A DNA stretch of 64,000 bases from the NCBI RefSeq assembly GCF_056746865.1, contig NZ_CM163382.1, one strand, 5' to 3'. This document shows positions 1-60,600 of the stretch, piece by piece. Every line of letters starts with the position of its first letter. Position 1 is the first letter of the stretch. Below the pieces are notes generated by a model. The model ran no database searches. It saw nothing but the letters and a program-made list of their open reading frames with translations, and was not told the origin of the DNA. The position numbers were made by a program, and so were the translations under genes.

Positions 1-114
1 GCGTATACCGGTCGTGAAGTGCAGGATATTCCCGGTGTGCTGGCCGTGTTTGCTGAACGCCGTAAGGACAGTTTTGGCCCGTATGTCCGGCTGATGAGCG
101 TCACCCTGAACTGA
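1..114 (+). CDS. yeeT: YeeT-like island protein, 3' partial (5' end lies outside the window)
   Basis: Frame open from window start to TGA at 112-114; the translated tail ...AYTGREVQDIPGVLAVFAERRKDSFGPYVRLMSVTLN matches the C-terminus of the complete copy at 29067..29288; lies directly upstream of cbeA as in CP4-44-type islands. Confidence 0.6.
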   Translation, partial: AYTGREVQDIPGVLAVFAERRKDSFGPYVRLMSVTLN

Positions 115-193
115 GTCTGGAAGGGCATTCAGAAGAGCAGAATTATCGCCACCACCGGACCATTCTTAACCAATTTTCTGTGAGGATTTTATC

Positions 194-568
194 GTGCCAG
201 ACACTCTCCCCGGGACAACGCATCCCGACGATAACAACGACCGCCCCTGGTGGGGGCTACCCTGCACCGTGACGCCCTGTTTTGGGGCACGTCTGGTGCA
301 GGAGGGTAACCGGTTGCATTACCTTGCAGACCGCGCCGGTATCAGAGGCCGGTTCAGCGACGCGGATGCGTACCATCTGGACCAGGCCTTTCCGCTGCTG
401 ATGAAACAACTGGAACTCATGCTCACCAGCGGTGAACTGAATCCCCGCCATCAGCATACCGTCACGCTGTATGCAAAAGGGCTGACCTGCAAAGCCGATA
501 CCCTCAGCAGTTGTGGTTACGTTTATATGGCTGTTTATCCGACACTGGCACCCGCAACCACCTCATAA
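194..568 (+). CDS. cbeA: CbeA/YeeU-family antitoxin (cytoskeleton bundling-enhancing factor), GTG start
   Basis: 124-aa ORF; translation (MPDTLPGTTHPDDNNDRPWWGLPCTVTPCFGARLVQEGNRLHYLADRAGIRG...) recognised from memory as YeeU/CbeA; followed by cbtA. Confidence 0.85.
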   Translation: MPDTLPGTTHPDDNNDRPWWGLPCTVTPCFGARLVQEGNRLHYLADRAGIRGRFSDADAYHLDQAFPLLMKQLELMLTSGELNPRHQHTVTLYAKGLTCKADTLSSCGYVYMAVYPTLAPATTS

Positions 569-614
569 CCCCGAATATCTCACCTTTAGCACTACCAGTT
601 ACAGAGAACTTAAG

Positions 615-992
615 ATGAAAACATTACCTGACACACACGTACGGGAGGCATCGCGCTGCCCGTCTCCCGTCACCATCTGGCAGACACTGCTCACCCGACT
701 GTTGGACCAGCATTACGGCCTCACACTGAATGACACACCGTTCGCTGATGAACGTGTGATTGAGCAGCATATTGAGGCAGGCATTTCACTGTGCGATGCG
801 GTGAACTTTCTCGTTGAAAAATACGCACTGGTACGTACCGACCAGCCAGGATTCAGCGCCTGTACCCGTTCTCAGTTAATAAACAGTATTGATATCCTCC
901 GGGCCCGCCGGGCAACCGGCCTGATGGCCCGCGACAATTACAGAACGGTAAATAACATTACCCTGGGTAAACATCCGGGGGCGAAACAATGA
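615..992 (+). CDS. cbtA: CbtA/YeeV-family toxin
   Basis: ATG at 615 inside ORF 513..992; MKTLPDTHVREASRCPSPVTIWQTLLTRLLDQHYGLTLNDTPFADERVIEQHIEAGISLCDAVNFLVEKYALVRTDQPGFS... recognised as CbtA; paired with cbeA; 4-bp overlap with the next ORF. Confidence 0.85.
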   Translation: MKTLPDTHVREASRCPSPVTIWQTLLTRLLDQHYGLTLNDTPFADERVIEQHIEAGISLCDAVNFLVEKYALVRTDQPGFSACTRSQLINSIDILRARRATGLMARDNYRTVNNITLGKHPGAKQ

Positions 993-1480
993 AACTGGCC
1001 CTGACGCTGGAAGCCGACAGCATTAACGTGCAGGCACTGAACATGGGGCGCATTGTCGTTGACGTCGATGGTGTTACTCTCGCTGAACTGATTAACGTGG
1101 TCTGCGATAACGGTTACTCCCTTCGTGTTGTTGATGAATCTGACCGGACATCAGCAGAGCGCACGCCATCATCTGCGGCGGCCCTTACCGGCATACGCTG
1201 CAGTACCGCGCATATCACGGCAAAGGACAACGCCTGGCTGTACTCGCTGTCACATCAGACGAATGGCACCGGCGAATCAGAATGGATTCATTTCACAGGT
1301 AGCGGATATCTGTTACGTACCGATGCGTGGTCATACCCGGTTCTGCGGCTTAAGCGCCTGGGCCTGTCAAAAACGTTCCGTCGTCTGGTTGTCACACTTA
1401 CCCGACGTTATGGCGTCAGTCTCATTCATCTGGATGCCAGCGCTGAATGTCTGCCGGACCTGCCCACTTTCGACTGGTAA
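989..1480 (+). CDS. yeeW: YeeW-like island protein
   Basis: 163-aa ORF translationally coupled to cbtA (ATGA overlap); position and sequence consistent with yeeW of CP4-44. Confidence 0.6.
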   Translation: MKLALTLEADSINVQALNMGRIVVDVDGVTLAELINVVCDNGYSLRVVDESDRTSAERTPSSAAALTGIRCSTAHITAKDNAWLYSLSHQTNGTGESEWIHFTGSGYLLRTDAWSYPVLRLKRLGLSKTFRRLVVTLTRRYGVSLIHLDASAECLPDLPTFDW

Positions 1481-1491
1481 CCAGGAACAAC

Positions 1492-1689
1492 ATGAAATCA
1501 TTAACCACGGAAACCGCACTGGATATTCTGATTGCGTGGCTACAGGACAATATCGACTGCGAATCGGGAATTATCTTTGACAACGATGAGGATAGAACGG
1601 ATTCGGCAGCACTGTTGCCCTGTATCGAACAGGCCAGGGAGGATATCCGTATCCTGCGCCAGTTGCAGCTTCTGCAACAGAACCGGTGA
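1492..1689 (+). CDS. small conserved hypothetical protein downstream of yeeW
   Basis: ATG at 1492 inside ORF 1447..1689 (MKSLTTETALDILIAWLQDNIDCESGIIFDNDED...); the same sequence recurs in the second copy fused in frame to yeeW (30193..30816). Confidence 0.5.
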   Translation: MKSLTTETALDILIAWLQDNIDCESGIIFDNDEDRTDSAALLPCIEQAREDIRILRQLQLLQQNR

Positions 1690-1773
1690 GTCTTACTCAC
1701 CAGACTTCATTCCACTGACGCCAGCCTGAACAGGGCTGGCGTTTTCATTTATCTGCAAAAAGGAATATCGATT

Positions 1774-2640
1774 ATGTCTGAAATCACAGCCCCCCGTCCG
1801 GAAGTGGTCAACGGGCATACGGACGTTATCGGCTCAACCAGCATCCGCCACATTCTGGCTGTACGAAAGAGTGCGCTGCTGCAAATCGACACACTTATCC
1901 GGCAACTGGCAGAAATCTCGGTGCTGACGGAAAGCATCGGAGGTAAAACTGCACTGGACTGGGCCATGAAACAGGATTTTCGCTGCGGTTGCTGGCTGAT
2001 GGAAAAACCGGAAACCGCAATGAAAGCCATCACCCGCAACCTTGACCGCGAAATCTGGCGTGATCTGATGCAACGTTCAGGGATGCTGTCATTAATGGAT
2101 GCACAAGCCCGTGATACATGGTACCGGTCACTGGAGTACGATAATTTTCCGGAAATCAGCGAAGCAAATATCCTGAGCACGTTTGAACAACTGCACCAGA
2201 ACAAAGATGAAGTGTTTGAGCGAGGGGTGCTCAACGTTTTCAGAGGACTGAGCTGGAATTACAAAACCAATTCACCCTGCAAATTTGGCAGTAAAATTAT
2301 CGTCAACAATCTGGTGAGGTGGGACCGGTGGGGGTTTCATCTTATCACCGGACAACAGGCCGATCGACTTGCCGATCTGGAAAGAATGCTGCACCTGTTC
2401 AGCGGCAAACCGATCCCCGACAACCGGGAAAACATCACCATTCATCTGGATGATCACATCCAGTCTGTTCAGGGTAAAGAGGACTATGAAGATGAGATGT
2501 TCAGCATCAGATACTTTAAGAAGGGCTCCGCGCACATCACGTTCAGGAAACCAGAGCTGGTTGACAGGCTTAATGATATTATTGCCAGACACTACCCGGA
2601 AGCCCTGGCAAGCACAGTGAACAAAAGCCGCAAGGCATAA
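1774..2640 (+). CDS. conserved island protein, possibly DUF4942 family
   Basis: 288-aa ORF; a truncated paralog (N-terminal 79 aa) is present at 30916..31155. Confidence 0.55.
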   Translation: MSEITAPRPEVVNGHTDVIGSTSIRHILAVRKSALLQIDTLIRQLAEISVLTESIGGKTALDWAMKQDFRCGCWLMEKPETAMKAITRNLDREIWRDLMQRSGMLSLMDAQARDTWYRSLEYDNFPEISEANILSTFEQLHQNKDEVFERGVLNVFRGLSWNYKTNSPCKFGSKIIVNNLVRWDRWGFHLITGQQADRLADLERMLHLFSGKPIPDNRENITIHLDDHIQSVQGKEDYEDEMFSIRYFKKGSAHITFRKPELVDRLNDIIARHYPEALASTVNKSRKA

Positions 2641-2711
2641 AAGAGGTATTTTACAATTCGCGAATATTAACTATTATTAATTGATAGCAATCAATCGGCG
2701 AGAAAATAACC

Positions 2712-2975
2712 ATGCCTACCAGTGTATCCCTCAGTCCTTACTTTGAAACGTTTATCCGCGAACAAATAGAAAGTGGTCGGTACAACAATACAAGTGAAGT
2801 CATTCGTGCCGGACTTCGTGCTCTGGAAGAACGGGAACAGCAGATAAAGCTTGAATCACTCCAGAGCGCCGTGGCCGCAGGCATCAACAGCGGTGAAAGT
2901 AAAAGTGCTGAAGAGGTATTCGGGCGACTGACGCACAAATACAAAAAGATGGCAGAAGGTGAACAGCCAATATGA
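2712..2975 (+). CDS. parD: type II antitoxin, ParD/RHH family
   Basis: 87-aa ORF (…FETFIREQIESGRYNNTSEVIRAGLRALEERE…) typical of ParD antitoxins; 4-bp ATGA overlap with the following toxin ORF. Confidence 0.75.
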   Translation: MPTSVSLSPYFETFIREQIESGRYNNTSEVIRAGLRALEEREQQIKLESLQSAVAAGINSGESKSAEEVFGRLTHKYKKMAEGEQPI

Positions 2976-3298
2976 AACTGACTGTTTCACCATTAGCAGA
3001 ACACGATCTTGAAGCTATAGGTGACTGGATCGCTCAGGATAATCCTGTCCGTGCAATCAGTTTTACCGAAGAGCTTTACCAACAATGTCTGTTGATAGCC
3101 GAATCGCCAGTACTCTACAGAGAAAGACCCGAGTTAGGGGCTGGGATCAGAGGTTGTTCGTATGGTCGTTACCTTCTGCTGTTCAGGGTACTGGATACTG
3201 AAGTTCGTATCGAACGTATCGTTCATGGTTCCCGGGATATCAACAGGGTACTTGCAGAGCCAGACGACAAACCATCAGATCATTTCTGGCAGCCATAA
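2972..3298 (+). CDS. parE: type II toxin, ParE/RelE family
   Basis: 108-aa ORF coupled to the preceding RHH antitoxin; size and C-terminal region fit ParE/RelE. Confidence 0.7.
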   Translation: MKLTVSPLAEHDLEAIGDWIAQDNPVRAISFTEELYQQCLLIAESPVLYRERPELGAGIRGCSYGRYLLLFRVLDTEVRIERIVHGSRDINRVLAEPDDKPSDHFWQP

Positions 3299-3545
3299 AC
3301 AAAATCTGTGCGTTAACGCTCCCTAACACAGGTAGCCAGGTATTTTATAAATCTCTGTATTTTGTTGTCACTTCGATTCCGCGATTCAGCATATCGAACC
3401 AGACAAAATGATTACAACAAACCACAAGAAAGAGGGATTATAGCGTCAAAAGAATTCGAATTGCACATGGGGGCCTCATTGGTGGCCTCAAAAAGAACAA
3501 GGATAAAACAGTCGATACAAAACAATTGGTTATATAACCAGTTTC

Positions 3546-3564
3546 ATTCCGAGTCCGGGCACCA
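3546..3564 (+). repeat. 19-bp copy of the tRNA-Phe 3' end (ATTCCGAGTCCGGGCACCA): island att direct repeat, not a complete tRNA
   Basis: Exact match to the 3' terminal 19 nt of E. coli tRNA-Phe including CCA; upstream sequence does not match the rest of the tRNA; integrase gene begins about 200 bp downstream. Confidence 0.7.
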
Positions 3565-3576
3565 AATTCATATAAA

Positions 3577-3603
3577 CGGACCTCCACGGAGGTCCGTTTT
3601 TCG
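3577..3603 (+). terminator. rho-independent terminator-like hairpin after the tRNA-Phe repeat
   Basis: CGGACCTCC-ACGG-AGGTCCG stem-loop followed by a T-run. Confidence 0.5.
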
Positions 3604-3761
3604 TTTCAGGACGCCACGATTTAAGTGTCCTGCCGCCAAATCAATTCTACCGAACTCAACCAGACTCCCCCCACATCAACCCCATTGTGTGGGTATAATT
3701 GCGGGTATACCCCAGTTCGACAGAATTTGTACCCTCTTTAACGCATTCAGAAGGCTGAACT

Positions 3762-5027
3762 ATGGCACTGACTGACGCAAAAATCCGGGCTGCAAAGCAC
3801 ACTGACAAGGCTTATAAACTCACTGACGGGGCTGGCATGTTCCTGCTGGTACATCCTAATGGTTCCCGTTACTGGCGTCTCCGTTATCGCATTCTGGGTA
3901 AGGAGAAAACTCTGGCACTTGGTGTATACCCGGAGGTTTCTCTCTCCGAAGCTCGTACAAAACGGGATGAGGCCCGAAAACTGATTTCGGAGGGGATTGA
4001 CCCTTGCGAACAGAAAAGAGCTAAAAAAGTAGTCCCTGATTTACAACTCTCTTTTGAACATATCGCACGACGCTGGCATGCCAGTAATAAACAATGGGCA
4101 CAATCACACAGCGATAAGGTACTCAAAAGCCTCGAAACACACGTTTTCCCCTTTATCGGCAACCGGAACATCACAACACTCAATACCCCGGACCTGCTTA
4201 TCCCTGTTCGTGCTGCAGAAGCTAAACAAATTTATGAAATCGCCAGTCGTCTGCAGCAAAGAATATCTGCTGTAATGCGTTATGCCGTACAGTCTGGCAT
4301 CATCAGATATAATCCTGCTCTGGATATGGCTGGCGCATTGACCTCTGTAAAACGACAGCATCGCCCCGCTCTTGATCTTTCACGTCTGCCTGAACTTCTG
4401 TCGCGTATTAACAGTTATAAAGGTCAGCCTGTCACCCGGCTTGCTGTTATGCTGAATTTACTGGTTTTTATTCGCTCCAGTGAACTCAGATATGCCCGCT
4501 GGGCTGAAATTGATATTGACAATTCAATGTGGACTATTCCAGCCGAACGCAAACCTCTGCCAGGGGTAAAATTCTCACACCGGGGCTCCAAGATGCGAAC
4601 ACCACATCTTGTGCCACTCAGCAAACAGGCTGTAGCCATACTGACAGAACTTCAGACATGGGCTGGTGAAAATGGTCTGATCTTTACGGGAGCACATGAC
4701 CCGCGTAAACCAATCAGTGAAAATACCGTAAATAAGGCCCTCAGAGTGATGGGGTATGACACAACCAAGGAAGTCTGTGGCCATGGATTCCGGGCGATGG
4801 CGTGCAGTGCATTGATTGAATCCGGCTTATGGTCAAGAGATGCGGTTGAACGTCAGATGAGTCATCAGGAGCGCAACGGAGTACGTGCCGCGTATATTCA
4901 TAAAGCAGAACATCTGGAAGAACGTCGGCTTATGCTGCAATGGTGGGCAGATTTTCTGGATGCAAACAGGGAGGAGTGTATCAGTCCGTTTGAATATGCA
5001 AAAGTTAACAATCCACTGAAAAGGTGA
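3762..5027 (+). CDS. int: tyrosine recombinase / P4-type phage integrase
   Basis: 421-aa ORF; N-terminus MALTDAKIRAAKHTDKAYKLTDGAGMFLLVHPNGSRYWRLRYR... is the characteristic P4-integrase N-terminal domain; C-terminal catalytic region present (…HGFRAMA…); lies next to the tRNA-Phe att repeat. Confidence 0.9.
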   Translation: MALTDAKIRAAKHTDKAYKLTDGAGMFLLVHPNGSRYWRLRYRILGKEKTLALGVYPEVSLSEARTKRDEARKLISEGIDPCEQKRAKKVVPDLQLSFEHIARRWHASNKQWAQSHSDKVLKSLETHVFPFIGNRNITTLNTPDLLIPVRAAEAKQIYEIASRLQQRISAVMRYAVQSGIIRYNPALDMAGALTSVKRQHRPALDLSRLPELLSRINSYKGQPVTRLAVMLNLLVFIRSSELRYARWAEIDIDNSMWTIPAERKPLPGVKFSHRGSKMRTPHLVPLSKQAVAILTELQTWAGENGLIFTGAHDPRKPISENTVNKALRVMGYDTTKEVCGHGFRAMACSALIESGLWSRDAVERQMSHQERNGVRAAYIHKAEHLEERRLMLQWWADFLDANREECISPFEYAKVNNPLKR

Positions 5028-5282: not shown

Positions 5283-6326
5283 ATGACTGGCAAATTACGC
5301 TTTGAAGTGAACGATAACCAGGGCTGTTTCATATTTCCGGAAACCTGGTTTGGCTCGTTGCTGGATGAGTTTGAAGAACTGATTGATGCATACGATGCGG
5401 ATGAAATCAGCGAAACAAGTTACATCAACAAACTCAGGCGCCTTGCCCGACAGGAGAATGACTTTATTGATGTACACGCTCACTTGGCATACGTATTTCT
5501 GGAGCAGAATGCCCCGCGTAAGGCGCTGAATGCTGCCCTTAAAGGGCTGGCAGTTGGCAATCGTCTTATCCCTGAAGGTTTCAGTGGCAGAATCATCTGG
5601 ATACATCCTGACAACCGACCTTTTCTTCGTGCCCTCTATGCGGCAATCCTGGCAAATGCACATTTACAGCGTCATCAGGATGCCATCATGCTCATTGAAA
5701 AAATACTGGATTACAATCCCGAAGATAATCATGGTGCACGCTGGCTACTGGGACCGGAACTGTTACGCACTGGCGCTCATGAACAGGCACGCCATATACT
5801 GCAGGAACATGCAGATGAATTTTCACCTTACTGGTATGAACTCGGCCTTCTGCATTTTCTTAATGGGGAACTGGTAAAAGCTGCAACTGCATTTCGTCGC
5901 GGCTTTGCGGCAAATACTTACATCGCAGAAATACTGTGCGGAAATCTGCATCCATTTCCACTTGCTGTATGGCATAACTTTTCAGGCGGTCCGGATACTG
6001 CCGAAGATTATTATGCCACATACCACCCGTTATGGGGGCAATATCCGGAAGCATTGCTGTTTGTAAACTGGCTCTATAATCATTCCTCTGTGCTGCATGA
6101 ACGGGCAGAAATCATTAAATGCGCCGAAATGCTGATGCAGGAAGATGATTTCGAAATATGCGAAAGTATTTTAAGACAGCAGGAGAAGTTGCGTGAAAGA
6201 ATTGATGAGACGCTTTCTGAGAAAATTGTACAGAAATGCAGAAATATGAATGGTGAATATGTCTGGCCCTGGATATTGCCGTTTTCAGCGGCAGGCATGA
6301 AACATACTGGCATACAGTATCAGTAG
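5283..6326 (+). CDS. hypothetical protein, helical/TPR-like, unknown function
   Basis: ORF 5253..6326 (357 aa), internal ATG at 5283; no recognisable catalytic motif; composition suggests alpha-helical repeats. Confidence 0.4.
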   Translation: MTGKLRFEVNDNQGCFIFPETWFGSLLDEFEELIDAYDADEISETSYINKLRRLARQENDFIDVHAHLAYVFLEQNAPRKALNAALKGLAVGNRLIPEGFSGRIIWIHPDNRPFLRALYAAILANAHLQRHQDAIMLIEKILDYNPEDNHGARWLLGPELLRTGAHEQARHILQEHADEFSPYWYELGLLHFLNGELVKAATAFRRGFAANTYIAEILCGNLHPFPLAVWHNFSGGPDTAEDYYATYHPLWGQYPEALLFVNWLYNHSSVLHERAEIIKCAEMLMQEDDFEICESILRQQEKLRERIDETLSEKIVQKCRNMNGEYVWPWILPFSAAGMKHTGIQYQ

Positions 6327-8966: not shown

Positions 8967-11033
<2,067 letters not shown>

Positions 11034-12497: not shown

Positions 12498-12710
12498 TCA
12501 GGTGACATATTTCCAGACGGAAGCCGGCACGCGATCGTAAAGTTTGTTCATTGTCAGTTCTGCCAGCCGGTTGTCAACGGCAGAGTTAAAGGCTTCCAGC
12601 TCCGCAGGGGTAAGTTTATAACGTGTGTGGGAAATCACTTTTTCCAGCGTCTCCCGGGATGAACAACGACGGAACTGATACAGCCAGTCTTCTTTGGTTT
12701 TAACTTCCAT
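12498..12710 (-). CDS. small hypothetical protein
   Basis: 70-aa ORF with coding-like composition (MEVKTKEDWLYQFRRCSSRETLEKVISHTRYKLTPAELEAF…); function unknown. Confidence 0.4.
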   Translation of the reverse strand: MEVKTKEDWLYQFRRCSSRETLEKVISHTRYKLTPAELEAFNSAVDNRLAELTMNKLYDRVPASVWKYVT

Positions 12711-13434: not shown

Positions 13435-13641
13435 ATGACCCCCCCAGTTTCACTGATGGATGACCAGATGGTCGACATGGCGTTTATCACTCAACTGACT
13501 GGCCTGACCGATAAGTGGTTTTACAAACTCATCAGGGATGGGGCCTTTCCGGCCCCCATCAAGCTGGGCCGCAGTTCCCGCTGGCTGAAAAGTGAAGTGG
13601 AAGCCTGGCTGCAGGCGCGTATTGCACAGTCCCGTCCGTAA
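13435..13641 (+). CDS. alpA: AlpA-family prophage transcriptional regulator
   Basis: ATG at 13435 within ORF 13381..13641; …MAFITQLTGLTDKWFYKLIRDGAFPAPIKLGRSSRWLKSEVEAWL… is the characteristic AlpA/MerR-like HTH. Confidence 0.7.
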   Translation: MTPPVSLMDDQMVDMAFITQLTGLTDKWFYKLIRDGAFPAPIKLGRSSRWLKSEVEAWLQARIAQSRP

Positions 13642-16542: not shown

Positions 16543-17415
16543 ATGAATCCGTCTGATGCCATTGAGGCAATTGAAAAACCGCTCTCCTCCCTGCCTTACT
16601 CACTTTCCCGTCACATCCTGGAACATCTGCGTAAACTCACCAGTCACGAACCCGTGATTGGCATTATGGGTAAAAGCGGGGCCGGTAAATCCTCACTCTG
16701 TAATACACTGTTTCAGGGGGAGGTCACCCCGGTCAGTGATGTTCACGCCGGCACCCGGGAAGTGCAGCGCTTCCGTCTGAGTGGCCATGGTCACAGCATG
16801 GTTATCACTGACCTGCCCGGGGTGGGCGAGAGTCGTGACAGGGATGCAGAGTATGAAGCCCTGTACCGTGACATTCTGCCTGAACTGGACCTGGTACTGT
16901 GGCTGATTAAAGCCGATGACCGGGCCCTGTCTGTGGATGAGTATTTCTGGCGACACATCCTGCACCGGGGACATCAGCAGGTGCTGTTTGTGGTGACGCA
17001 GGCCGACAAAACGGAGCCCTGCCATGAATGGGATATGGCCGGCATTCAGCCTTCTCCCGCACAGGCACAGAACATTCGCGAAAAAACGGAGGCGGTATTC
17101 CGTCTGTTCCGGCCCGTACATCCGGTTGTTGCCGTATCGGCCCGCACCGGCTGGGAACTGGATACGCTGGTCAGTGCGCTCATGACAGCGCTTCCCGACC
17201 ATGCCGCCAGTCCCCTGATGACCCGCCTGCAGGACGAGCTGCGCACGGAATCTGTCCGGGGTCAGGCCCGTGAACAGTTTACCGGTGCGGTGGACCGGAT
17301 ATTTGACACGGCGGAGAGCGTCTGTGTTGCCTCTGTTGCCCGTACGGTTCTGCGTGCCGTCCGTGACACGGTGGTCTCTGTTGCCCGCGCTGTATGGAAC
17401 TGGATTTTCTTCTGA
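16543..17415 (+). CDS. yeeP: YeeP/YfjP/YkfA-family GTPase
   Basis: ATG at 16543 in ORF 16504..17415; P-loop GIMGKSGAGKSS and downstream DLPGVGES motif; located just upstream of flu as yeeP is in CP4-44. Confidence 0.75.
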   Translation: MNPSDAIEAIEKPLSSLPYSLSRHILEHLRKLTSHEPVIGIMGKSGAGKSSLCNTLFQGEVTPVSDVHAGTREVQRFRLSGHGHSMVITDLPGVGESRDRDAEYEALYRDILPELDLVLWLIKADDRALSVDEYFWRHILHRGHQQVLFVVTQADKTEPCHEWDMAGIQPSPAQAQNIREKTEAVFRLFRPVHPVVAVSARTGWELDTLVSALMTALPDHAASPLMTRLQDELRTESVRGQAREQFTGAVDRIFDTAESVCVASVARTVLRAVRDTVVSVARAVWNWIFF

Positions 17416-17524: not shown

Positions 17525-17575
17525 GAATATAACGATCGATAAAACAGATATCGATCGTTACTATCGATCGTTTAT
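17525..17575 (+). promoter_or_regulatory. flu (agn43) phase-variation switch: three GATC Dam sites within the OxyR-binding region
   Basis: CGATCGATAAAACAGATATCGATCGTTACTATCGATCG with GATC at 17534, 17553 and 17566, about 220 bp upstream of the flu start. Confidence 0.7.
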
Positions 17576-17721
17576 AGTGGTTAATGGTCTGCGAAAAGGC
17601 AGCTGAATCTCTTCATCATGCAGAACGGAATTGCACACAACGGACTGATACTTCTCTGGCGGATGAGAGAGGGGAAGCATTTATGTCCGGGAAAAACCAC
17701 TTTATCTGACCATGCTGTTTT

Positions 17722-17761
17722 GTACCTGCCGGTATCCACTTTTGTGGGTACCGGCTTTTTT
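17722..17761 (+). other. stem-loop plus T-run in the flu 5' leader (terminator-like; may close an IsrC-like small RNA or act as a leader structure)
   Basis: GTACCTGCCGGTATCCAC-TTTT-GTGGGTACCGGC followed by TTTTTT, ending about 25 nt before the flu ATG. Confidence 0.35.
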
Positions 17762-17786
17762 ATTCACCCTCTGTAAGGAAAAGCTG

Positions 17787-18515
17787 ATGAAACGACATCT
17801 GAACACCAGCTACAGGCTGGTATGGAATCACATTACGGGTACCCTGGTGGTGGCCTCCGAACTGGCCCGCTCACGGGGAAAACGCGCCGGTGTGGCGATT
17901 GCGCTGTCTCTTGCTGCTGTCACATCAGTCCCGGCACTGGCTGCTGACACGGTTGTACAGGCGGGAGAAACCGTGAGCGGCGGAACACTGACAAATCATG
18001 ACAACCAGATTGTATCCGGAACAGCTGATGGCGTGACTGTCAGTACCGGGCTTGAGCTGGGGCCGGACAGTGACGAAAACACCGGCGGGCAATGGATAAA
18101 AGCGGGTGGCACAGGCAGAAACACCACTGTCACCGCAAATGGTCGTCAGATTGTGCAGGCAGGAGGAACTGCCAGTGATACGGTTATTCGTGATGGCGGA
18201 GGGCAGAGCCTTAACGGACTGGCGGTGAACACCACGCTGGATAACAGAGGTGAGCAGTGGGTACACGGGGGAGGGAAAGCTGCCGGTACAATTATTAACC
18301 AGGATGGTTACCAGACCATAAAACATGGCGGACTGGCAACCGGAACCATCGTCAACACCGGTGCAGAAGGTGGTCCGGAGTCTGAAAATGTGTCCAGCGG
18401 TCAGATGGTCGGAGGGACGGCTGAATCCACCACCATCAACAAAAATGGCCGGCAGGTTATCTGGTCTTCGGGGATGGCACGGGACACCCTCATTTACGCC
18501 GGTGGTGACCAGACT
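17787..18515 (+). pseudogene. flu: antigen 43 (Ag43) autotransporter, 5' portion interrupted by an IS
   Basis: MKRHLNTSYRLVWNHITGTLVVASELARSRGKRAGVAIALSLAAVTSVPALAADTVVQ… matches the Ag43 signal peptide and passenger domain; identity ends at …YAGGDQT where IS sequence begins. Confidence 0.85.
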
Positions 18516-18716
18516 GCAAAATGGCATCTGAATCGATCGCAGTTTGGCATTCGAATCGATCATGATTTGGCATCCATCTCCGATCACAGTTTGGCATCAC
18601 AATCGATCACGATTTGGCATGCTTCCGATCATTGATTGGCATCCTGCCAGTCACTCCGGGAATTAACTCTTTTCACCACAGTCTCCATTGCCGTGTTTAA
18701 ACCAGTGGAGACGTCA

Positions 18717-20282
18717 ATGTCCAGAAAGAGAAAATCCAGGAGCACTATGGAAACCTGTTTTAAGATTCTTCAGCTCAAGTTCGACAAGAAGCTGACTAAC
18801 CGTTGTATCGGACTGACGTTACACATCAGCGCCTCAACCGTTTTTGAGGTTCTTGCCCGCTTCAAAGCCTCTTCTCTGTCATGGCCATTACCTGCTGATA
18901 TATCCCATGACACGCTGGAGAAACTCATTTTTCCGCCCAAAGACACCTTTGCATCAGAGCTTGTAATGCCTGACATGTTGTACCTCGATACGGAAATGAG
19001 AAAACCAGGTGTGACGCGGCAACTGTTGTGGATGGAATACAAGGCACAGGCGGGTAACAAAGCGATGGGATACTCGCACTTCTGCCGTTGCTACCGGGAG
19101 TGGAAAAAAACGCGACGTCTCTCCATGCGCCAGGAGCATCGTGCCGGCGAAAAGCTTTTTATCGACTTCTGTGGTCCTACGGTTCCTGTTATTAATCCGG
19201 ACACCGGTGAGATACGCCGCGTGGCAATCTTCGTGGCCGTAATGGGGGCGTCCAACTATACCTACGTTGAAGCGTGCGAAGGTCAGGACATGATGTCATG
19301 GTTAAATGCCCACAGCCGTTGCCTGACCTTCCTGGGCGGCGTACCGAAGCTGCTCATCCCCGATAACCTCAGAAGCGCAGTGAAAAAGGCCGATCGATAT
19401 GAGCCTGTCATCAACGACAGTTATCAGGCACTGGCTGAGCACTATGGCACGGTTATCATCCCGGCCCGACCACGCAAACCTAAAGATAAACCAAAAGCAG
19501 AAAACGGCGTCCTCATCGTCGAACGATGGCTTCTTGCCCGCATCCGTAATGAAACCTTCCACACGCTCAGGGCGCTGAATGCGCGCCTTAGGGAGTTACT
19601 GACAGACATGAATAACCGGCCAATGAAGGGGTACGGCAATCAAACCCGTGCAGAACGCTTCCGCATACTGGATGCGCCAGCACTCTCTCCGCTGCCTCTG
19701 GCACCTTATGAATACACGGAATACAAAGCTGTGAAGGTTGGCCCTGACTACCACGTTGAATATGCCCGTCACTGGTACTCCGTTCCACACGAACTGGTCG
19801 GTCAGCGTCTGTCACTGAAGGCGGGGCAGTCGGTGGTACAGCTCTGGCACAAGGGGCAGTGTGTGGCGCAACATCCGCGCAGCACACATGAATATAAACA
19901 CACAACCAATCCGCTTCACATGCCAGAGCGCCACCGGCAGCACGGGACATGGACACCGGAACGCCTGATCGAGCAGGGAAAACGTACGGGCCCGTCCACA
20001 GGCCGGGTGGTTGAATCCATGCTGAAGGCAAAACCCCATCCGGAACTGGCTTATCGTGCAGTTCTGGGGCTGCTGGCACTTCAGAAAAAATACGGCCCGG
20101 AACGGCTGGAAAAGGCCTGTTACGTTGCCCTGCACTATAACGCCCCTGACAGACGCTTTATCGACAATCTGCTGCGTCACCATCGGGAGAACCTGGAGCT
20201 TCCATTATCCCGCCAGGGCGAACAACATCCGGCATATGCTTCAGAGCATGAAAACCTGCGTGGTCCGGGCTACTACCACTGA
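18717..20282 (+). CDS. istA: IS21-family transposase IstA
   Basis: Large ORF 18636..20282 with integrase-core features (…LFIDFCGPTVPV…); the start codon is uncertain (18636, 18717 or 18747). Confidence 0.75.
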   Translation: MSRKRKSRSTMETCFKILQLKFDKKLTNRCIGLTLHISASTVFEVLARFKASSLSWPLPADISHDTLEKLIFPPKDTFASELVMPDMLYLDTEMRKPGVTRQLLWMEYKAQAGNKAMGYSHFCRCYREWKKTRRLSMRQEHRAGEKLFIDFCGPTVPVINPDTGEIRRVAIFVAVMGASNYTYVEACEGQDMMSWLNAHSRCLTFLGGVPKLLIPDNLRSAVKKADRYEPVINDSYQALAEHYGTVIIPARPRKPKDKPKAENGVLIVERWLLARIRNETFHTLRALNARLRELLTDMNNRPMKGYGNQTRAERFRILDAPALSPLPLAPYEYTEYKAVKVGPDYHVEYARHWYSVPHELVGQRLSLKAGQSVVQLWHKGQCVAQHPRSTHEYKHTTNPLHMPERHRQHGTWTPERLIEQGKRTGPSTGRVVESMLKAKPHPELAYRAVLGLLALQKKYGPERLEKACYVALHYNAPDRRFIDNLLRHHRENLELPLSRQGEQHPAYASEHENLRGPGYYH

Positions 20283-20298
20283 CAGAAGGAACAACAGT

Positions 20299-21054
20299 AT
20301 GAGTGATAACCTGTTAAACAAACTGACCCAACTGAAACTCCCGGCGATGGCCGGGAGCCTGATACGGCAGCGGGAAACGCCTCAGACCTACGACGAACTG
20401 TCGTTCGAGGAAAGGCTGACGCTGCTGGTTGATGACGAGCTTCTGAGCAGGGAAAACAGCCGTGTGGCACGGTTGAGAAAAAATGCCGGCCTGAAATACC
20501 AGGCAACACCGGAAGGGCTGCGCTATCCGGCCTCAAGAGGTCTGCGGGCTGAACAGATGAGAGAACTGCTGAACGGCCACTACATAACCCACAGGAAAAA
20601 CCTGCTGATAACCGGTCCGACAGGATGTGGCAAGAGCTGGATAGCCAATGCGCTGGGCGAACAGGCATGTCGACAGAAACACAGCGTCCGGTACTGTAGA
20701 ACCGGGCGATTACTGGAACAACTGGCTCAGGGACGTGTTGATGGCAGCTGGCTGAAATATCTGAAACAGTTGCAAAAAATACAGGTTCTAATCCTGGACG
20801 ATCTGGGGCTGGAACAGTTAAGTAACGCCCAGTGTAATGACCTTCTGGAGCTCATAGAGGATCGTTACGGACAAAGCAGCACGATAGTGGTAAGCCAGTT
20901 CCCGGTAGATAAATGGCATGGTCTGATGGAGAACCCAACAACAGCAGATGCCATCCTGGACAGACTGGTACATAACTCACACCGGGTGGTCCTTCAGGGA
21001 GAGTCACTGAGGAAAAATCCCCCGGTAGTGGAAAGCAGCGAAAAAACGCGTTAA
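20299..21054 (+). CDS. istB: IS21-family helper ATPase IstB
   Basis: 251 aa from the ATG at 20299; Walker A GPTGCGKSW and Walker B VLILDDLG. Confidence 0.85.
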   Translation: MSDNLLNKLTQLKLPAMAGSLIRQRETPQTYDELSFEERLTLLVDDELLSRENSRVARLRKNAGLKYQATPEGLRYPASRGLRAEQMRELLNGHYITHRKNLLITGPTGCGKSWIANALGEQACRQKHSVRYCRTGRLLEQLAQGRVDGSWLKYLKQLQKIQVLILDDLGLEQLSNAQCNDLLELIEDRYGQSSTIVVSQFPVDKWHGLMENPTTADAILDRLVHNSHRVVLQGESLRKNPPVVESSEKTR

Positions 21055-21144
21055 AAAGCGGTAGAAAAAGTTAAGTTCCCGGTTGATCGAATGGATGCGA
21101 ATCGCTGATCGGACTTCGATGCCAATCCGTGATCGAATAGAGCG

Positions 21145-23554
21145 GAATACGCACCAGACGGTACACGGAGAGGCACATAACACCCGACTGGAGGGGGGTA
21201 ACCAGTATGTACACAACGGTGGCACGGCAACAGAGACGCTGATAAACCGTGATGGCTGGCAGATGATTAAGGAAGGAGGAACTGCCGCGCATACCACCAT
21301 CAACCAGAAAGGAAAGCTGCAGGTGAATGCCGGCGGTAAAGCGTCTGATGTCACCCAGAACACGGGCGGTGCACTGGTTACCAGTACAGCTGCAACCGTC
21401 ACCGGCACAAACCGCCTGGGAGCATTCTCCGTTGTGGCGGGTAAGGCTGATAATGTCGTACTGGAAAATGGCGGACGTCTGGATGTGCTGAGCGGACACA
21501 CAGCCACTAATACCCGTGTGGATGATGGCGGAACGCTGGATGTCCGCAACGGTGGTGCCGCCACCACCGTATCCATGGGGAATGGCGGTGTACTGCTGGC
21601 CGATTCCGGTGCCGCTGTCAGTGGTACCCGGAGCGACGGAACGGCATTCCATATCGGAGGCGGTCAGGCGGATGCCCTGATGCTGGAAAAAGGCAGTTCA
21701 TTCACGCTGAACGCCGGTGATACGGCCACGGATACCACGGTAAATGGCGGATTGTTCACTGCCAGAGGGGGCTCGCTGGCGGGCACCACCACGCTGAATA
21801 ACGGTGCCACGCTTATCCTTTCCGGGAAAACGGTAAATAACGATACCCTGACCATCCGTGAAGGTGATGCACTCCTGCAGGGAGGCGCTCTTACCGGTAA
21901 CGGCAGGGTGGAAAAATCAGGAAGTGGCACACTCACTGTCAGCAACACCACACTCACCCAGAAAACCGTCAACCTGAATGAAGGCACGCTGACGCTGAAC
22001 AACAGTACCGTCACCACGGATGTCATCGCTCAGCGCGGCACGGCCCTGAAGCTGACCGGCAGCACAGTGCTGAACGGTGCCATTGACCCCACGAATGTCA
22101 TCCTGACATCCGGTGCCACCTGGAATATCCCCGATAACGCCACGGTTCAGTCGGTGGTGGATGACCTCAGCCATGCCGGACAGATTCATTTCACCTCCGC
22201 CCGCACAGGGAAGTTCGTTCCGACAACTCTGCAGGTGAAAAACCTGAACGGGCAGAATGGCACCATCAGCCTGCGTGTACGCCCGGATATGGCGCAGAAC
22301 AATGCTGACAGACTGGTCATTGACGGTGGCAGGGCAACCGGAAAAACCATCCTGAATCTGGTGAACGCCGGCAACAGTGGTACGGGGCTGGCGACCACCG
22401 GTAAGGGTATTCAGGTGGTTGAGGCCATTAACGGTGCCACCACGGAGGAAGGGGCTTTTGTCCAGGGGAATATGTTGCAGGCCGGGGCCTTTAACTACAC
22501 CCTCAACCGGGACAGTGATGAGAGCTGGTATCTGCGCAGTGAAGAACGTTATCGTGCTGAAGTCCCCCTGTACGCCTCCATGCTGACACAGGCAATGGAC
22601 TATGACCGGATTCTGGCAGGCTCCCGCAGCCATCAGACCGGTGTAAACGGTGAAAATAACAGCGTCCGTCTCAGCATTCAGGGCGGCCATCTCGGTCACG
22701 ATAACAACGGCGGTATTGCCCGTGGGGCCACGCCGGAAAGCAGCGGCAGCTATGGCTTCGTCCGTCTGGAGAGTGACCTGCTCAGAACAGAGGTCGCCGG
22801 TATGTCACTGACGACAGGAGTGTATGGTGCTGCAGGCCATTCTTCCGTTGATGTTAAGGATGATGACGGCTCCCGCGCCGGCACGGTCCGGGATGATGCC
22901 GGCAGCCTGGGCGGATATATGAACCTGACACACACCTCCTCCGGCCTGTGGGCTGACATTGTGGCACAGGGAACCCGCCACAGTATGAAAGCGTCATCGG
23001 GCAATAACGACTTCCGCGCACGGGGCTGGGGCTGGCTGGGCTCACTGGAAACCGGTCTGCCCTTCAGTATCACTGACAACCTGATGCTGGAGCCACGGCT
23101 GCAGTACACCTGGCAGGGGCTTTCGCTGGATGACGGTAAGGACAACGCCGGTTATGTGAAGTTCGGGCATGGCAGTGCACAACATGTGCGTGCCGGTTTC
23201 CGTCTGGGCAGCCACAACGATATGACCTTTGGTGAAGGCACCTCATCCCGTGCCCCCCTGCGTGACAGTGCAAAACACAGTGTGCGTGAACTGCCGGTGA
23301 ACTGGTGGGTACAGCCTTCCGTTATCCGCACCTTCAGCTCCCGGGGTGATATGCGTGTGGGGACCTCCACCGCAGGCAGCGGGATGACGTTCTCACCCTC
23401 ACAGAATGGCACTTCACTGGATCTGCAGGCAGGACTGGAAGCCCGTGTCCGGGAAAATATCACCCTGGGCGTTCAGGCCGGTTATGCCCACAGCGTCAGC
23501 GGCAGCAGCGCTGAAGGCTATAACGGTCAGGCCACGCTGAATGTGACCTTCTGA
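21145..23554 (+). pseudogene. flu: antigen 43 (Ag43) autotransporter, 3' portion (rest of passenger domain plus beta-barrel)
   Basis: Reading frame resumes with …HQTVHGEAHNTRLEGGNQYVHNGGTATE… and continues to the canonical autotransporter C-terminus …GYNGQATLNVTF. Confidence 0.85.
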
Positions 23555-29066: not shown

Positions 29067-29288
29067 ATGAAAATCATCACCCGTGGTGAAGCCATGCGTA
29101 TTCACCAACAGCATCCTGCATCCCGTCTATTTCCGTTCTGCACCGGTAAGTACCGCTGGCACGGCAGTGCTGAGGCGTATACCGGTCGTGAAGTACAGGA
29201 TATTCCCGGTGTGCTGGCCGTGTTTGCTGAACGCCGTAAGGACAGTTTTGGCCCGTATGTCCGGCTGATGAGCGTCACCCTGAACTGA
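29067..29288 (+). CDS. yeeT: YeeT-like island protein
   Basis: 73 aa; complete copy of the partial gene at 1..114. Confidence 0.7.
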   Translation: MKIITRGEAMRIHQQHPASRLFPFCTGKYRWHGSAEAYTGREVQDIPGVLAVFAERRKDSFGPYVRLMSVTLN

Positions 29289-29361
29289 GTGGGAATTCTG
29301 ATGAGCAGAATTATCGCCAATACCGGAGCATTCTTAGCCGATTTTCTGTAGGGATTTTATC

Positions 29362-29730
29362 GTGTCAGACACACTCCCCGGGACAACACTTCCCGACGAC
29401 AATCACGACCGCCCCTGGTGGGGGCTGCCCTGCACCGTGACGCCCTGTTTCGGGGCACGTCTGGTGCAGGAGGGTAACCGGTTGCATTACCTTGCCGACC
29501 GCGCCGGTATCAGAGGCCTGTACAGCAATGCAGATGCGTACCACCTGGACCAGGCCTTTCCGCTGCTGATGAAACAACTGGAACTCATGCTCACCAGCGG
29601 TGAACTGAATCCCCGCCATCAGCATACCGTCACGCTGTATGCAAAAGGGCTGACCTGCAAAGCCGATACCCTCAGCAGTTGTGGTTACGTTTATCTGGCT
29701 GTTTATCCGACGCCCGAAATGAAAAATTAA
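29362..29730 (+). CDS. cbeA: CbeA/YeeU-family antitoxin, second copy (GTG start)
   Basis: 122 aa; MSDTLPGTTLPDDNHDRPWWGLPCTVTPCFGARLVQEGNRLHYLADRAGIRG…; near-identical to 194..568. Confidence 0.85.
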   Translation: MSDTLPGTTLPDDNHDRPWWGLPCTVTPCFGARLVQEGNRLHYLADRAGIRGLYSNADAYHLDQAFPLLMKQLELMLTSGELNPRHQHTVTLYAKGLTCKADTLSSCGYVYLAVYPTPEMKN

Positions 29731-29818
29731 CTCTCCAGAATAGCCTTCTGCTACGGCCTGGTGTTTTCACCACGCCACTTTCCCATTTTTATATCTGCAT
29801 ATCAGGAAAATCTTCAGT

Positions 29819-30196
29819 ATGAAAACATTACCTGTATTACCCGGGCAGGCGGCCAGTTCTCGCCCGTCTCCTGTTGAAATCTGGCAGATACTTCTGTCCC
29901 GACTGCTGGACCAGCACTACGGCCTCACACTGAATGACACACCGTTTGCCGATGAACGTGTGATCGAGCAGCATATTGAGGCAGGCATTTCACTGTGTGA
30001 TGCGGTGAACTTTCTCGTGGAAAAATACGCGCTGGTGCGTACCGACCAGCCGGGATTCAGCGCCTGTACCCGCTCTCAGTTAATAAACAGCATCGATATC
30101 CTCCGGGCTCGCAGGGCGACCGGCCTGATGACCCGCGACAATTACAGAACGGTAAATAATATTATCCTGGGTAAGCACCCGGAGGTGAAACAATGA
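29819..30196 (+). CDS. cbtA: CbtA/YeeV-family toxin, second copy
   Basis: 125 aa; near-identical to 615..992. Confidence 0.85.
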   Translation: MKTLPVLPGQAASSRPSPVEIWQILLSRLLDQHYGLTLNDTPFADERVIEQHIEAGISLCDAVNFLVEKYALVRTDQPGFSACTRSQLINSIDILRARRATGLMTRDNYRTVNNIILGKHPEVKQ

Positions 30197-30816
30197 AACT
30201 TTCCCTGACGCCGGAAGCCGACAGCGTTAACGTACAGGCACTGAATATGGGGCGCATTGTCGTTGACGTCGATGGTATTAATCTCGCTGAACTGATTAAC
30301 AAGGTCGCTGAAAACGGTTATTCACTCCGCGTGGTGGATGAATCTGACCAACAGTCAACCTGCACTCCACAACCGTTTACGACTCTTTCCGGCATACGCT
30401 GCAGTACCGCACATATCACGGAAAAGGACAACGCCTGGCTGTACTCGCTGTTACACCAGACCAGTGACTTTGGTGAATCAGAATGGATTCATTTTACCGG
30501 TACCGGTTATCTGTTACGTTCCGTCGTCTGGTCGTCACACTCATCCGGCGTTATGGTGTCAGTCTCATTCATCTGGATGCCAGTGCCAGATGTCTGCCAG
30601 GTTTACCCACTTTCGACTGGTAATCCGGAAATTCACAACATGAAATCATTAACCACGGAAACAGCGCTGGATATTCTGATTACGTGGCTGCAGGACAATA
30701 TCGACTGCGAATCGGGAATTATCTTCGACAACGATGAGGATAAAACAGATTCGGCAGCACTGTTGCCCTGTATCGAACAGGCCAGGGAGGGTATCCGTAC
30801 CCTGCGCCAACAGTAA
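30193..30816 (+). CDS. yeeW: YeeW-like protein fused in frame to the small downstream protein (deletion variant)
   Basis: 207-aa ORF; relative to copy 1 a stretch of about 58 bp is missing in the yeeW 3' region, placing yeeW and the MKSLTTETALDIL… ORF in one frame. Confidence 0.5.
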   Translation: MKLSLTPEADSVNVQALNMGRIVVDVDGINLAELINKVAENGYSLRVVDESDQQSTCTPQPFTTLSGIRCSTAHITEKDNAWLYSLLHQTSDFGESEWIHFTGTGYLLRSVVWSSHSSGVMVSVSFIWMPVPDVCQVYPLSTGNPEIHNMKSLTTETALDILITWLQDNIDCESGIIFDNDEDKTDSAALLPCIEQAREGIRTLRQQ

Positions 30817-30915
30817 CTTTTGCACCAGAACCAGTGAAGATCACTCACCCGATTTCACTTCCCTGACGTCAGCCTGAACACGGCTGGCGTTTTCATTTAT
30901 AAACAGAAAGGAAAA

Positions 30916-31155
30916 ATGATGATGTCAGATACCACACACTCCCGCCCGGAGGTGGTGAGCGGGCATACGGACGTTATCTATTCCACCTCAGTCTGCCACA
31001 TTCTGGCTGTACGAAAAAGTATACTGCTGCAAATCGACACACTTATCCGGCAACTGGCTGAAATCTCAGTTCTGACGGAAAGCATTGGAGGTAAAACCGG
31101 CCTGAACTGGTCGAGAAAGCAGGGTTTTCGCTGCGGTTGTTGGCTGATTGAGTAA
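30916..31155 (+). pseudogene. truncated copy of the DUF4942-like island gene (N-terminal 79 codons)
   Basis: Homology to 1774..2640 ends at about 31180, where the kpsS 3' end begins. Confidence 0.55.
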
Positions 31156-31177
31156 CCTGAAACGCCCATGAAAACCA

Positions 31178-60599: not shown

Positions 60600-60600
60600 G

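Follow-up and report, generated by a model that had tools for sequence, protein, structure and literature searches.

At the left end of the 64-kb stretch of DNA analysed here (the window) lie the last 3.5 kb of an island that we call island A, the remainder of which falls outside. Its right-hand "yee" backbone spans positions 1-2640 on the + strand. Mapping of the annotated genes of relatives by blastn identified within it a DUF987 fragment (1-114), the cbeA/yeeU antitoxin gene (194-568), the cbtA toxin gene (615-992) and genes for DUF5983 (989-1480), DUF957 (1492-1689) and DUF4942 (1774-2640) proteins, all on the + strand; NCBIfam profiles gave no match for DUF4942 or DUF5983. The final genes of the island are parD (2712-2975, +; TIGR02606, 96.8 bits against a cutoff of 46.2) and parE (2972-3298, +; Pfam ParE_toxin PF05016, E = 9e-18). 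These two genes, drawn from the ParD and ParE families, overlap by 4 bp (2972-2975) and form a type II toxin-antitoxin pair. With NCBIfam, ParE matched RelE only, below threshold. A first-pass annotation of this DNA had placed parDE at the end of the left island; the pair lies 247 bp to the left of the tRNA-Phe repeat described below and also closes the GI-pheV island of strain SMS-3-5.

The interval from parE to the repeat (3299-3545, +) is the putative attR-side arm of island A, with a conserved portion of about 170 bp (3374-3545). It contains two repeats with a 12-bp spacing, TGGGGGCCTCA and TGGTGGCCTCA, at 3468-3490, and a palindrome, AATTGGTTAT/ATAACCAGTT, at 3524-3543, abutting the core. 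A tRNA T-loop-like 10-mer, TTCGATTCCG, at 3372-3381 forms the outer edge of the arm; it occurs once in the window against an expectation of 0.14.

The core itself, ATTCCGAGTCCGGGCACCA at 3546-3564 (+), matches the final 19 nt of E. coli tRNA-Phe at all 19 positions when aligned with pheV of K-12 and of CB6886, and covers residues A58 to A76, from the T-loop to the CCA. This is the sole copy in the 64-kb window even with three mismatches allowed, and the chance expectation, obtained from 100 shuffles, is 0 copies. On the 5' side of the 19-mer, just G-T-T is kept from the tRNA (TTTC replaces TTCG), the remainder being unlike the tRNA body. ARAGORN detected no tRNA gene in the window, nor did Rfam at the gathering threshold. 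Hence the 19-bp exact tRNA-Phe 3' end devoid of a tRNA body, as recognized at first pass, stands as described, and neither program found the complete tRNA-Phe gene overlapping 3546-3564 that would have spoken against it. A sublocation in the T-loop is reportedly described as typical for P4-type integrases in Williams' survey (NAR 2002). The 19-mer falls in the 19-bp attR class of GI-pheV as given in Table 1 of PMC11537424.

To the right of the core, positions 3565-3761 (+) make up the putative attL-side arm of a second island, island B. This segment is 100% identical to the sequence found in CB6886 between an intact pheV and int. A terminator scan located an intrinsic terminator hairpin at 3574-3599 (fold -21.7 kcal/mol, z = -3.4), which is predicted to end pheV transcription where island B sits directly on the tRNA gene. 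Two repeats spaced by 12 bp, TGTGGGTATA and TGCGGGTATA, occupy positions 3688-3709, just upstream of int. The sequence TATAAT occurs within these repeats. A simple scan of the + strand gave no sigma-70 promoter for int.

The open reading frame that follows (3762-5027, +) encodes an intact 421-aa tyrosine integrase of the P4 type, an intP4 allele, assigned by Pfam and by homology to P4 Int. It starts 197 bp to the right of the repeat, where a complete integrase had been noted about 200 bp away in the first reading. Three Pfam domains are present, Arm-DNA-bind_3 (PF13356), Phage_int_M (PF22022) and Phage_integrase (PF00589), all with E < 1e-16, and matches to PDB sequences include CP4-like integrase domains. 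Motif context in the translation, together with alignment to a 394-aa integrase that adjoins pheV in tandem relatives of the window (see below), points to R238, K277, H341, R344, H368 and Y378 as the putative catalytic R-K-H-R-H-Y residues. Identity to this 394-aa protein is only 42%, against 54.4% to phage P4 Int (97% coverage, E = 1e-149) and 97%, at the amino acid level, to IntP4.1 of Nissle.

The body of island B (5283-31180, +) was delineated by blastn mapping of genes from relatives. It includes a gene for a TPR protein (5283-6326, +), ISEc31 (9403-10661), hha (12498-12710, -), a GTPase gene (16543-17415) and an Ag43 gene (17787-23554) split by an IS21-family element (18515-21152, istA/istB). 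An AlpA-family HTH protein encoded at 13435-13641 (Pfam) is a candidate excision factor. Near the right end lie a second yee module (cbeA, 29362-29730; cbtA, 29819-30196) and a truncated DUF4942 gene (30922-31180) homologous to positions 1774-2041 of island A (84%). From there, a capsule locus with accompanying remnants (31178-60063, -; mapped from relatives' genes) replaces the right end of the island. Its content comprises two genes annotated as capsule or capsular polysaccharide biosynthesis genes, rfbCADB, glycosyltransferase genes and an ABC exporter with sugar-transporter and polysaccharide-export genes, as well as a kpsM fragment (59361-59502) and a JUMPstart element (59566-59604). Core chromosome from the right of the pheV hotspot resumes at 60064-63723 (-) with yghD (gspM), gspL, gspK, gspJ and gspI. 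In K-12, yghD directly adjoins pheV.

No distal repeat for island B was found between 3565 and yghD, whether searched as the 19-mer or a 25-mer with three mismatches or as the 23-bp class with indels. The same interval contains no 536-type arm and no native pheV flank of K-12 or SMS-3-5. Island B has no attR of its own in the window, and its DUF4942 gene is truncated against the capsule locus. This indicates that the distal repeat was lost in the truncation, leaving an anchored remnant that would not be excisable as an intact island. Judged from its sequence, island B is predicted to be fixed in place today.

Each of the two islands is found alone in other E. coli strains. In SMS-3-5, island A stands by itself at pheV, in the order pheV, 394-aa integrase (WP_001218742.1), cargo, cbtA, DUF5983, DUF957, DUF4942, ParD, ParE, arm, TTTTATTCCGAGTCCGGGCACCA and native K-12-type pheV flank. 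In CB6886, island B sits alone on an intact pheV, its arm and integrase being identical to those in the window and the identity reaching 99.98% over ~24 kb. Both are present in tandem in HCM-24C-3 and M21170, where pheV and the 394-aa integrase lie 38 kb and 86.6 kb, respectively, upstream of the junction. A search for an upstream tRNA-Phe gene, suggested by the first-pass annotation and run on these relatives, ended at pheV (38 kb upstream in HCM-24C-3, 87 kb in M21170). Relatives of this kind are 99.6-99.9% identical to the window at the junction, and tRNA-Phe and the integrase of island A probably lie upstream of the window as they do there. Positions 1-3545 share 99.94% identity with the HCM-24C-3 island at pheV and with the 20AR1039 island at pheU. 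In the latter strain, the island A end (99.94% identity) is inserted at pheU in front of the ancient yjdQ integrase fossil, which K-12 has in common with it; pheV and pheU are identical in sequence, and an intP4-type arm lies downstream of both. Among 5426 complete E. coli genomes, 204 contain the junction as such. That collection does not include the window in its entirety, the best full-length matches covering 83-84% of positions 1-25000.

Altogether, these comparisons make it very likely that the segment 3299-3761 is the internal seam between two different integrative islands arrayed in tandem at the pheV hotspot of E. coli, that the 19-mer at 3546-3564 provides the core both for the attR of island A and for the attL of island B, and that island A is a GI-pheV of the SMS-3-5 type. 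Two islands in tandem at tRNA-Phe is what had been proposed at first pass, and the single-A, single-B and tandem relatives agree with it. The 19-mer had likewise been taken as the distal att repeat of the left island, and in SMS-3-5 that end is indeed followed by native flank. The arm of island A is common to SMS-3-5, where the native pheV flank comes next, and to Nissle (90%). Nissle has the same arm class, then the repeat with one mismatch, then K-12-type native flank, which identifies the island A-type end as a genuine attR. Could the 19-mer instead be a chance match, or a pseudogene fragment left by a deleted tRNA-Phe copy, with no att role? The missing tRNA body and the lack of a second repeat for island B would be compatible with such an origin. 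However, no match is expected by chance, the boundary falls in the T-loop, where published attR sites also have theirs, the left flank is a conserved arm with which other islands close ahead of native flank, and the right flank equals the sequence that follows an intact pheV. The pheV alignment, the Nissle end and the arm comparison effectively refute this explanation, to which we assign almost no weight.

In the relatives, island A is a mosaic that contains fragments of integrase genes along with IS elements and resistance modules. A third repeat was looked for at the internal integrase remnants and none was found, so the mosaic does not divide into further clean islands. Given this mosaic structure, two islands may be a minimum. 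Island A, which in the relatives keeps two perfect repeats, should be excisable.

The order in which the two islands arrived was also considered. The junction sequence was discarded as a guide, since both orders yield an identical final sequence; the order of insertion rests on parsimony. According to the first-pass annotation, the right island had used the att site that the left island regenerated. The structure is compatible with this order as well as with the reverse, and comparison among strains favours the latter. Island B, through its capsule junction, shows 99.98-100% identity among CB6886 (where A is absent), M21170 (whose A variant is ~95-96% identical, that is, 4-5% apart from that of the window) and the window, and its truncated end is the same in all three. 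With B constant and A varying, absent or located at pheU, island A is probably the later arrival. Under this scenario, island B (3565 to ~31180, an intP4-type GI-pheV) would have been resident on pheV first. Island A would then have entered the intact tRNA gene by attP x attB recombination, displacing B and its integrase from the tRNA and leaving the 19-mer between the two. A similar pattern could also arise if A were precisely excised or were exchanged through homologous recombination.

The opposite order, in which A came first to pheV, B inserted into the A-regenerated attR (core plus native flank) and B later lost its distal repeat, predicts the very structure observed. Moreover, some islands, such as that of Nissle, have a left end of the intP4 type and a right end of the 394 type, so that either relative order is attainable. 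We nonetheless regard it as unlikely. The near-identity of island B and its capsule junction behind different A variants and where A is absent is difficult to accommodate: a truncated element is unable to integrate repeatedly, and the A-first order requires one tandem ancestor whose descendants lost A or had it replaced. The same A end is found at pheU on the tRNA-proximal side of a fossil that is fixed in the species. Finally, the attR left by island A lacks the 5' half of the T-stem (TTTC for TTCG), and the 23-bp identity of intP4-class sites suggests that this part matters to intP4.

The tandem might have been built in this lineage by homologous recombination rather than site-specific integration, for example through import of a pheV or pheU segment carrying A, with crossovers on the tRNA/yqgA side and in the intP4-type arm or the integrase. 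The identity of pheV and pheU, the intP4-type arm downstream of both, the 99.94% identity of the A end at the two loci and the description of the GI-pheV region as modular and recombining (a point made in PMC11537424) would all permit such an event. Yet the seam falls exactly at the att core and the sequence to its right is identical to the B island of CB6886, while the arm of the pheU fossil is just 89% identical over 133 bp. We consider this route improbable, slightly more so than the A-first order. In any case it would change how the array reached the strain and not the identity of the junction, and one integration would still be required.

The arms on the two sides of the seam differ in their repeats. 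The motif GG(G/T)GGC is found at -73/-61 in the arm of island A and at +126/+138 in the 394-aa integrase's own attL arm. The motif GGGTAYA is found at +127/+139 in the arm of island B and at -70/-58 in the attR arms of 536, APEC O1, H10407 and REL606. Pairing of arm motif with integrase type held for eight att sites plus three further 23-bp-class attR arms (11 in total). From this comparison, the seam appears to be a hybrid site, in which the two sides bear the putative arm-type sites of two different integrases, GG(G/T)GGC on the left for the 394-aa enzyme and GGGTAYA on the right for intP4. The arm-type repeats seem to be laid out as in the attP of phage P4, whose annotated arm repeats show the same 12-bp tandem layout at similar distances from the core, and presumably they are bound by protein. 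A further sequence, TT(C/T)GATTCC, is T-loop-like and lies at the outer edge of both arm classes; it is possibly an att element, functional or historical.

These observations suggest a wider proposal, which we put forward tentatively, as something conceivable rather than probable. Jointly with the readings on non-cognate ends and on the T-loop motif, the 19-bp and 23-bp attR classes of GI-pheV may reflect two integrase lineages with their own arm repeats, GG(G/T)GGC for the 394-aa type and GGGTAYA for the 421-aa intP4 type. If true, the two ends are non-cognate in the widespread UPEC islands of the CFT073, Nissle and ST131 type, where an intP4.1 attL arm is paired with a 19-bp attR arm of the 394 type. 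Such islands would then be what is left of collapsed tandem arrays of the kind that the window still has intact, perhaps formed by recombination between duplicated yee modules, and the non-cognate ends would explain why these UPEC islands behave as fixed chromosomal regions. In a separate comparison, derivation of the right end of Nissle from an A-type island was approached through the yee modules; modules of all types share 83-92% mutual identity with no clear clustering, and the comparison was uninformative.

Both islands have close counterparts among described systems. The account of GI-pheV by Nhu et al. (2024; PMC11537424) includes 19-bp and 23-bp attR classes and a divergent SMS-3-5 integrase. 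SMS-3-5_GI-pheV is like island A in having the same right end through the 19-bp repeat, and its 394-aa integrase is that of the tandem relatives. It differs in standing alone, with native flank and a group 2 kps locus beyond its attR, whereas in the window a second island follows; the repeat is flanked by TTTT in SMS-3-5 and by TTTC in the window, the A ends being ~96% identical. PAI V of 536 and the GI-pheV islands of Nissle 1917, CFT073 and EC958 share with island B the attL arm, the terminator, the intP4 integrase, the TPR gene, Ag43, the yee modules and the position next to a capsule locus. Unlike them, island B lacks an attR and is separated from pheV by island A; 536 keeps a 23-bp-class attR with GGGTACA arm repeats, Nissle a 19-bp-class attR with the other arm type. 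Biggel et al. (2020; PMC7686366) reported a PAI located beside another island at pheV, as well as the sharing of an integrase by pheV and pheU PAIs, and a partial tRNA-Phe repeat occurs inside the LEE island of Salmonella salamae (PMC3408504). These cases resemble ours in the extra island beside a resident pheV island or in the internal partial tRNA-Phe repeat between modules. They differ in contents (papGII PAIs, LEE), and hybrid att arms are analysed in neither. The pheU-yjdQ fossil of K-12 has an intP4-type attL arm with the same terminator hairpin directly after tRNA-Phe; there, however, the integrase is cut to a ~160-bp pseudogene and the island body is gone, whereas the window keeps the integrase and an island of ~27 kb.

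A more distant parallel is phage P4. Its target is tRNA-Leu (leuX), a tRNA 3' end different from that at the window site. Like the island B element, P4 (X51522) has a three-domain Int, 54% identical, and a core that is the 3' end of a tRNA gene. Its attP likewise bears 12-bp tandem arm repeat pairs, ~55-77 bp to the left of the core and just upstream of int. In P4, one repeat consensus, GGGGGCA, serves on both arms, whereas the site in the window joins the arms of two elements. No P4 replication or helper-exploitation genes were seen in the window.

In conclusion, the seam arrangement is real, ordinary and of a kind already documented. The literature already covers the two island types, the two att classes and the occurrence of islands side by side at pheV, and no new principle is involved. 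What is modestly new here is the idea that arm repeats pair with integrase type, which would imply mismatched ends in the common GI-pheV islands of UPEC. In practice, the seam is of use in annotating island boundaries in E. coli genomes. It also permits a forecast of mobility, island A having perfect repeats and cognate arms, and island B being anchored, with Ag43 as its cargo and the capsule locus alongside. For E. coli, the seam illustrates growth of the pheV hotspot by accretion, with a newcomer in the tRNA gene pushing the resident island, intact integrase included, away from it.

The sequence across the seam between the left-hand island (A) and the right-hand island (B) reads TTATATAACCAGTTTC, ATTCCGAGTCCGGGCACCA and AATTCATATAAACGG in succession, the middle block lying at 3546-3564. 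Aligned with pheV of K-12 and CB6886, this 19-mer equals the 3'-terminal 19 nt of E. coli tRNA-Phe (A58, in the T-loop, through CCA); only G-T-T remains of the tRNA to its left. The 19-mer is present once in the 64-kb window, with up to 3 mismatches permitted (chance expectation, none), and ARAGORN and Rfam detect no tRNA gene in the window, hence no complete tRNA-Phe overlapping 3546-3564. The exact, body-less copy of the tRNA-Phe 3' end described in the first-pass annotation is thus borne out, and that observation is correct in every particular that can be checked within the window. The tRNA-Phe gene of the array lies outside the window, its presence being expected from relatives.

As mapped from annotated relatives, the segment at 1-3545 is the CP4-44-like right end of island A, comprising cbeA, cbtA, DUF5983, DUF957 and DUF4942 genes, parD (2712-2975; TIGR02606), parE (2972-3298; Pfam ParE_toxin) and a non-coding arm. 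The parDE pair closes 247 bp before the repeat, at the left island's end as had been proposed. The cargo between DUF4942 and the attR arm (window 2641-3373; 3596-5000 in the Nissle locus L010; 2258-2290 in the 536 locus L014) differs among islands. The window and SMS-3-5 have parDE there, Nissle has an AbiEi/AbiEii-like pair, and 536, H10407 and REL606 are empty at this point. The island tip seems to hold a small, variable cassette for toxin-antitoxin or defence functions.

On the other side of the repeat, a 421-aa ORF (3762-5027) starts after 197 bp, in agreement with the complete integrase reported about 200 bp away. It carries the domains Arm-DNA-bind_3, Phage_int_M and Phage_integrase and, across 97% of its length, shares 54% identity with phage P4 Int; as read from motif context, the expected catalytic residues are kept. 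In M21170, the same gene is split by ISEc23 (IS66 family; locus L004, 13152-16957), both halves being 100% identical to the intact gene of the window. Island B (3565 to ~31180) continues with genes for a TPR protein, Gp2-family proteins, hha, an AlpA-family HTH protein and a GTPase, followed by Ag43, yeeR-like, IrmA, DUF932, antirestriction, radC, cbeA and cbtA genes, and ends in a DUF4942 gene truncated at 31180. An IS21-family element (istA, istB; 18515-21152) splits the Ag43 autotransporter gene (17787-23554); the islands of CB6886 and M21170, identical in other respects, lack this insertion. An Rfam IS102 RNA match (17532-17768) falls between the GTPase gene and the start of Ag43, where K-12 CP4-44 has the homologous sRNA, upstream of flu. 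ISEc31 (IS3 family; 9403-10661) lies inside a zinc-ribbon gene, and the same IS is found at another position in CB6886; a strong Rfam isrC match (150 bits, 9472-9594) falls within this copy and so marks the IS here, not a free-standing sRNA gene.

The capsule locus extends from 31180 to 58635. Beyond it come a kpsM fragment (59361-59502), a JUMPstart element (59566-59604), and then yghD and gspLKJI, the core genes flanking pheV in K-12. Within the capsule region (31178-59604), rfbBDAC and transport genes stand at one end; the cluster abuts the truncated DUF4942 gene of island B. The kpsM fragment and JUMPstart look like the leftover of an earlier kps region, replaced by the present capsule cluster.

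Single and tandem states of the two islands are found in relatives. SMS-3-5 carries A alone: behind pheV stand, in this order, the 394-aa integrase (WP_001218742.1), raffinose genes and other cargo; cbtA, DUF5983, DUF957, DUF4942, ParD, ParE, the arm and TTTTATTCCGAGTCCGGGCACCA then lead into native flank and kps. The island corresponds to SMS-3-5_GI-pheV in Nhu et al. 2024, who called its integrase the most divergent (PMC11537424). In Nissle, the same arm class and the repeat, with one mismatch, precede the K-12-type native pheV flank, showing that ends of this kind are true attR sites. CB6886 carries B alone, with intact pheV followed by the exact arm at 3565-3761 and the integrase, the island being 99.98% identical. 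HCM-24C-3 and M21170 have the tandem state of the window; the upstream distance from the seam to pheV and the 394-aa integrase is 38 kb in the former and 86.6 kb in the latter. Among 5426 complete E. coli genomes, 204 contain the seam (parDE, repeat, int), 471 the parDE-arm-repeat end, and 3063 the intP4-type arm and integrase directly on pheV. The reading of the 19-mer as distal att repeat of the left island therefore stands, since the same A end meets native flank in SMS-3-5, and two islands in tandem at tRNA-Phe is right in substance.

The first-pass annotation also had the right island using the att site regenerated by the left. Both orders of insertion give the same sequence, so that the junction alone does not decide between them. 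Island B and the truncated capsule junction are 99.98-100% identical in CB6886 (which lacks A), M21170 and the window; the right ends of A in M21170 and the window are 95-96% identical. The A end of the window is 99.94% identical to a pheU copy in 20AR1039, where it has the tRNA on one side and an intP4-type arm with an integrase fossil on the other. The fossil is also present in K-12, as yjdQ, so at pheU the tRNA-proximal A is unambiguously the later arrival. These comparisons make it probable that B was resident and A arrived later at pheV, the reverse of the order proposed.

The repeat arrangement on both sides of the core is that of phage P4: in its annotated attP, one pair of tandem 12-bp arm repeats (GGGGGCA) lies ~55-77 bp to the left of the core and a second pair immediately upstream of int. 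At the seam, left-arm repeats TGGGGGCCTCA and TGGTGGCCTCA lie at 3468-3490 (56-78 bp left of the 19-mer) and right-arm repeats TGTGGGTATA and TGCGGGTATA at 3688-3709, upstream of int. In 11 att sites, motif type sorts with integrase type, the 394-aa and 421-aa enzymes being only 42% identical. GG(G/T)GGC is found at +126/+138 beside the 394-aa integrase (SMS-3-5, HCM-24C-3) and at -73/-61 in 19-bp-class attR arms (window and Nissle; SMS-3-5 matches in one copy, -61). GGGTAYA is found at +127/+139 beside intP4 (window and Nissle; 536 has the +127 copy only) and at -70/-58 in the 23-bp-class attR arms of 536, APEC O1, H10407 and REL606. The seam is thus a hybrid, made of a 394-type attR arm, the shared core and an intP4-type attL arm. 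This pairing of arm-repeat and integrase type was not found in PMC11537424, PMC7686366 or PMC3408504.

A hairpin at 3574-3599, a good intrinsic terminator, directly follows pheV in single-island strains; in the window, behind a body-less tRNA end, it may insulate int from parDE read-through. Downstream of K-12 pheU (locus L021, 880-1300), an intP4-type attL arm, which includes the terminator hairpin, leads into the yjdQ integrase remnant, so that the terminator of a housekeeping tRNA gene is island-derived. In both arm classes, the conserved attR arm is bounded on its outer side by a tRNA T-loop-like motif: TTCGATTCCG at 3372-3381, unique in the window (0.14 copies expected per 64 kb), and TTTGATTCC at -102 from the core in 536, APEC O1, H10407 and REL606. 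The motif may be a functional site, or the decayed remains of an older att site.

The tandem seam is an instance of known biology. Nhu et al. described 19-bp and 23-bp attR classes of GI-pheV, with islands without attR being shorter and the kps locus treated as external to the island (PMC11537424). Biggel et al. reported a PAI that had integrated beside another island at pheV, as well as integrases common to pheV and pheU PAIs (PMC7686366), and a partial internal tRNA-Phe repeat is on record in a Salmonella salamae LEE island (PMC3408504).

In relatives, the arms of island A match and its 19-bp repeat is present in two perfect copies, so that its own integrase should be able to excise it. For island B, a search of the window up to yghD found no distal repeat of either class, arm or native flank; B would thus be anchored, despite its intact integrase and AlpA-like factor. 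The paralogous yee modules of the two islands (cbeA, cbtA, DUF5983, DUF957, DUF4942) form direct repeats at 1-2041 and 29175-31189, 84-85% identical and ~29 kb apart, a possible substrate for a homologous deletion fusing both islands. Such an event would remove parDE and the seam together with the integrase and the greater part of island B. The ends of Nissle GI-pheV (L010, 4930-5270, and L013, 2520-2790) are of different types, an intP4-type attL arm with GGGTATA repeats versus a 394-type attR arm with GGGGGCC repeats and the 19-bp core class; the mismatch suggests that a former tandem array has fused. From published attR sequences, the CFT073 and ST131 islands are probably mismatched likewise. 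As a corollary of the pairing of arm repeats with integrases, and judged by motif analysis, islands of the CFT073, Nissle and ST131 types, in which the attL arm is that of intP4.1 and the attR arm is 394-type, may have non-cognate ends and be collapsed tandem arrays.
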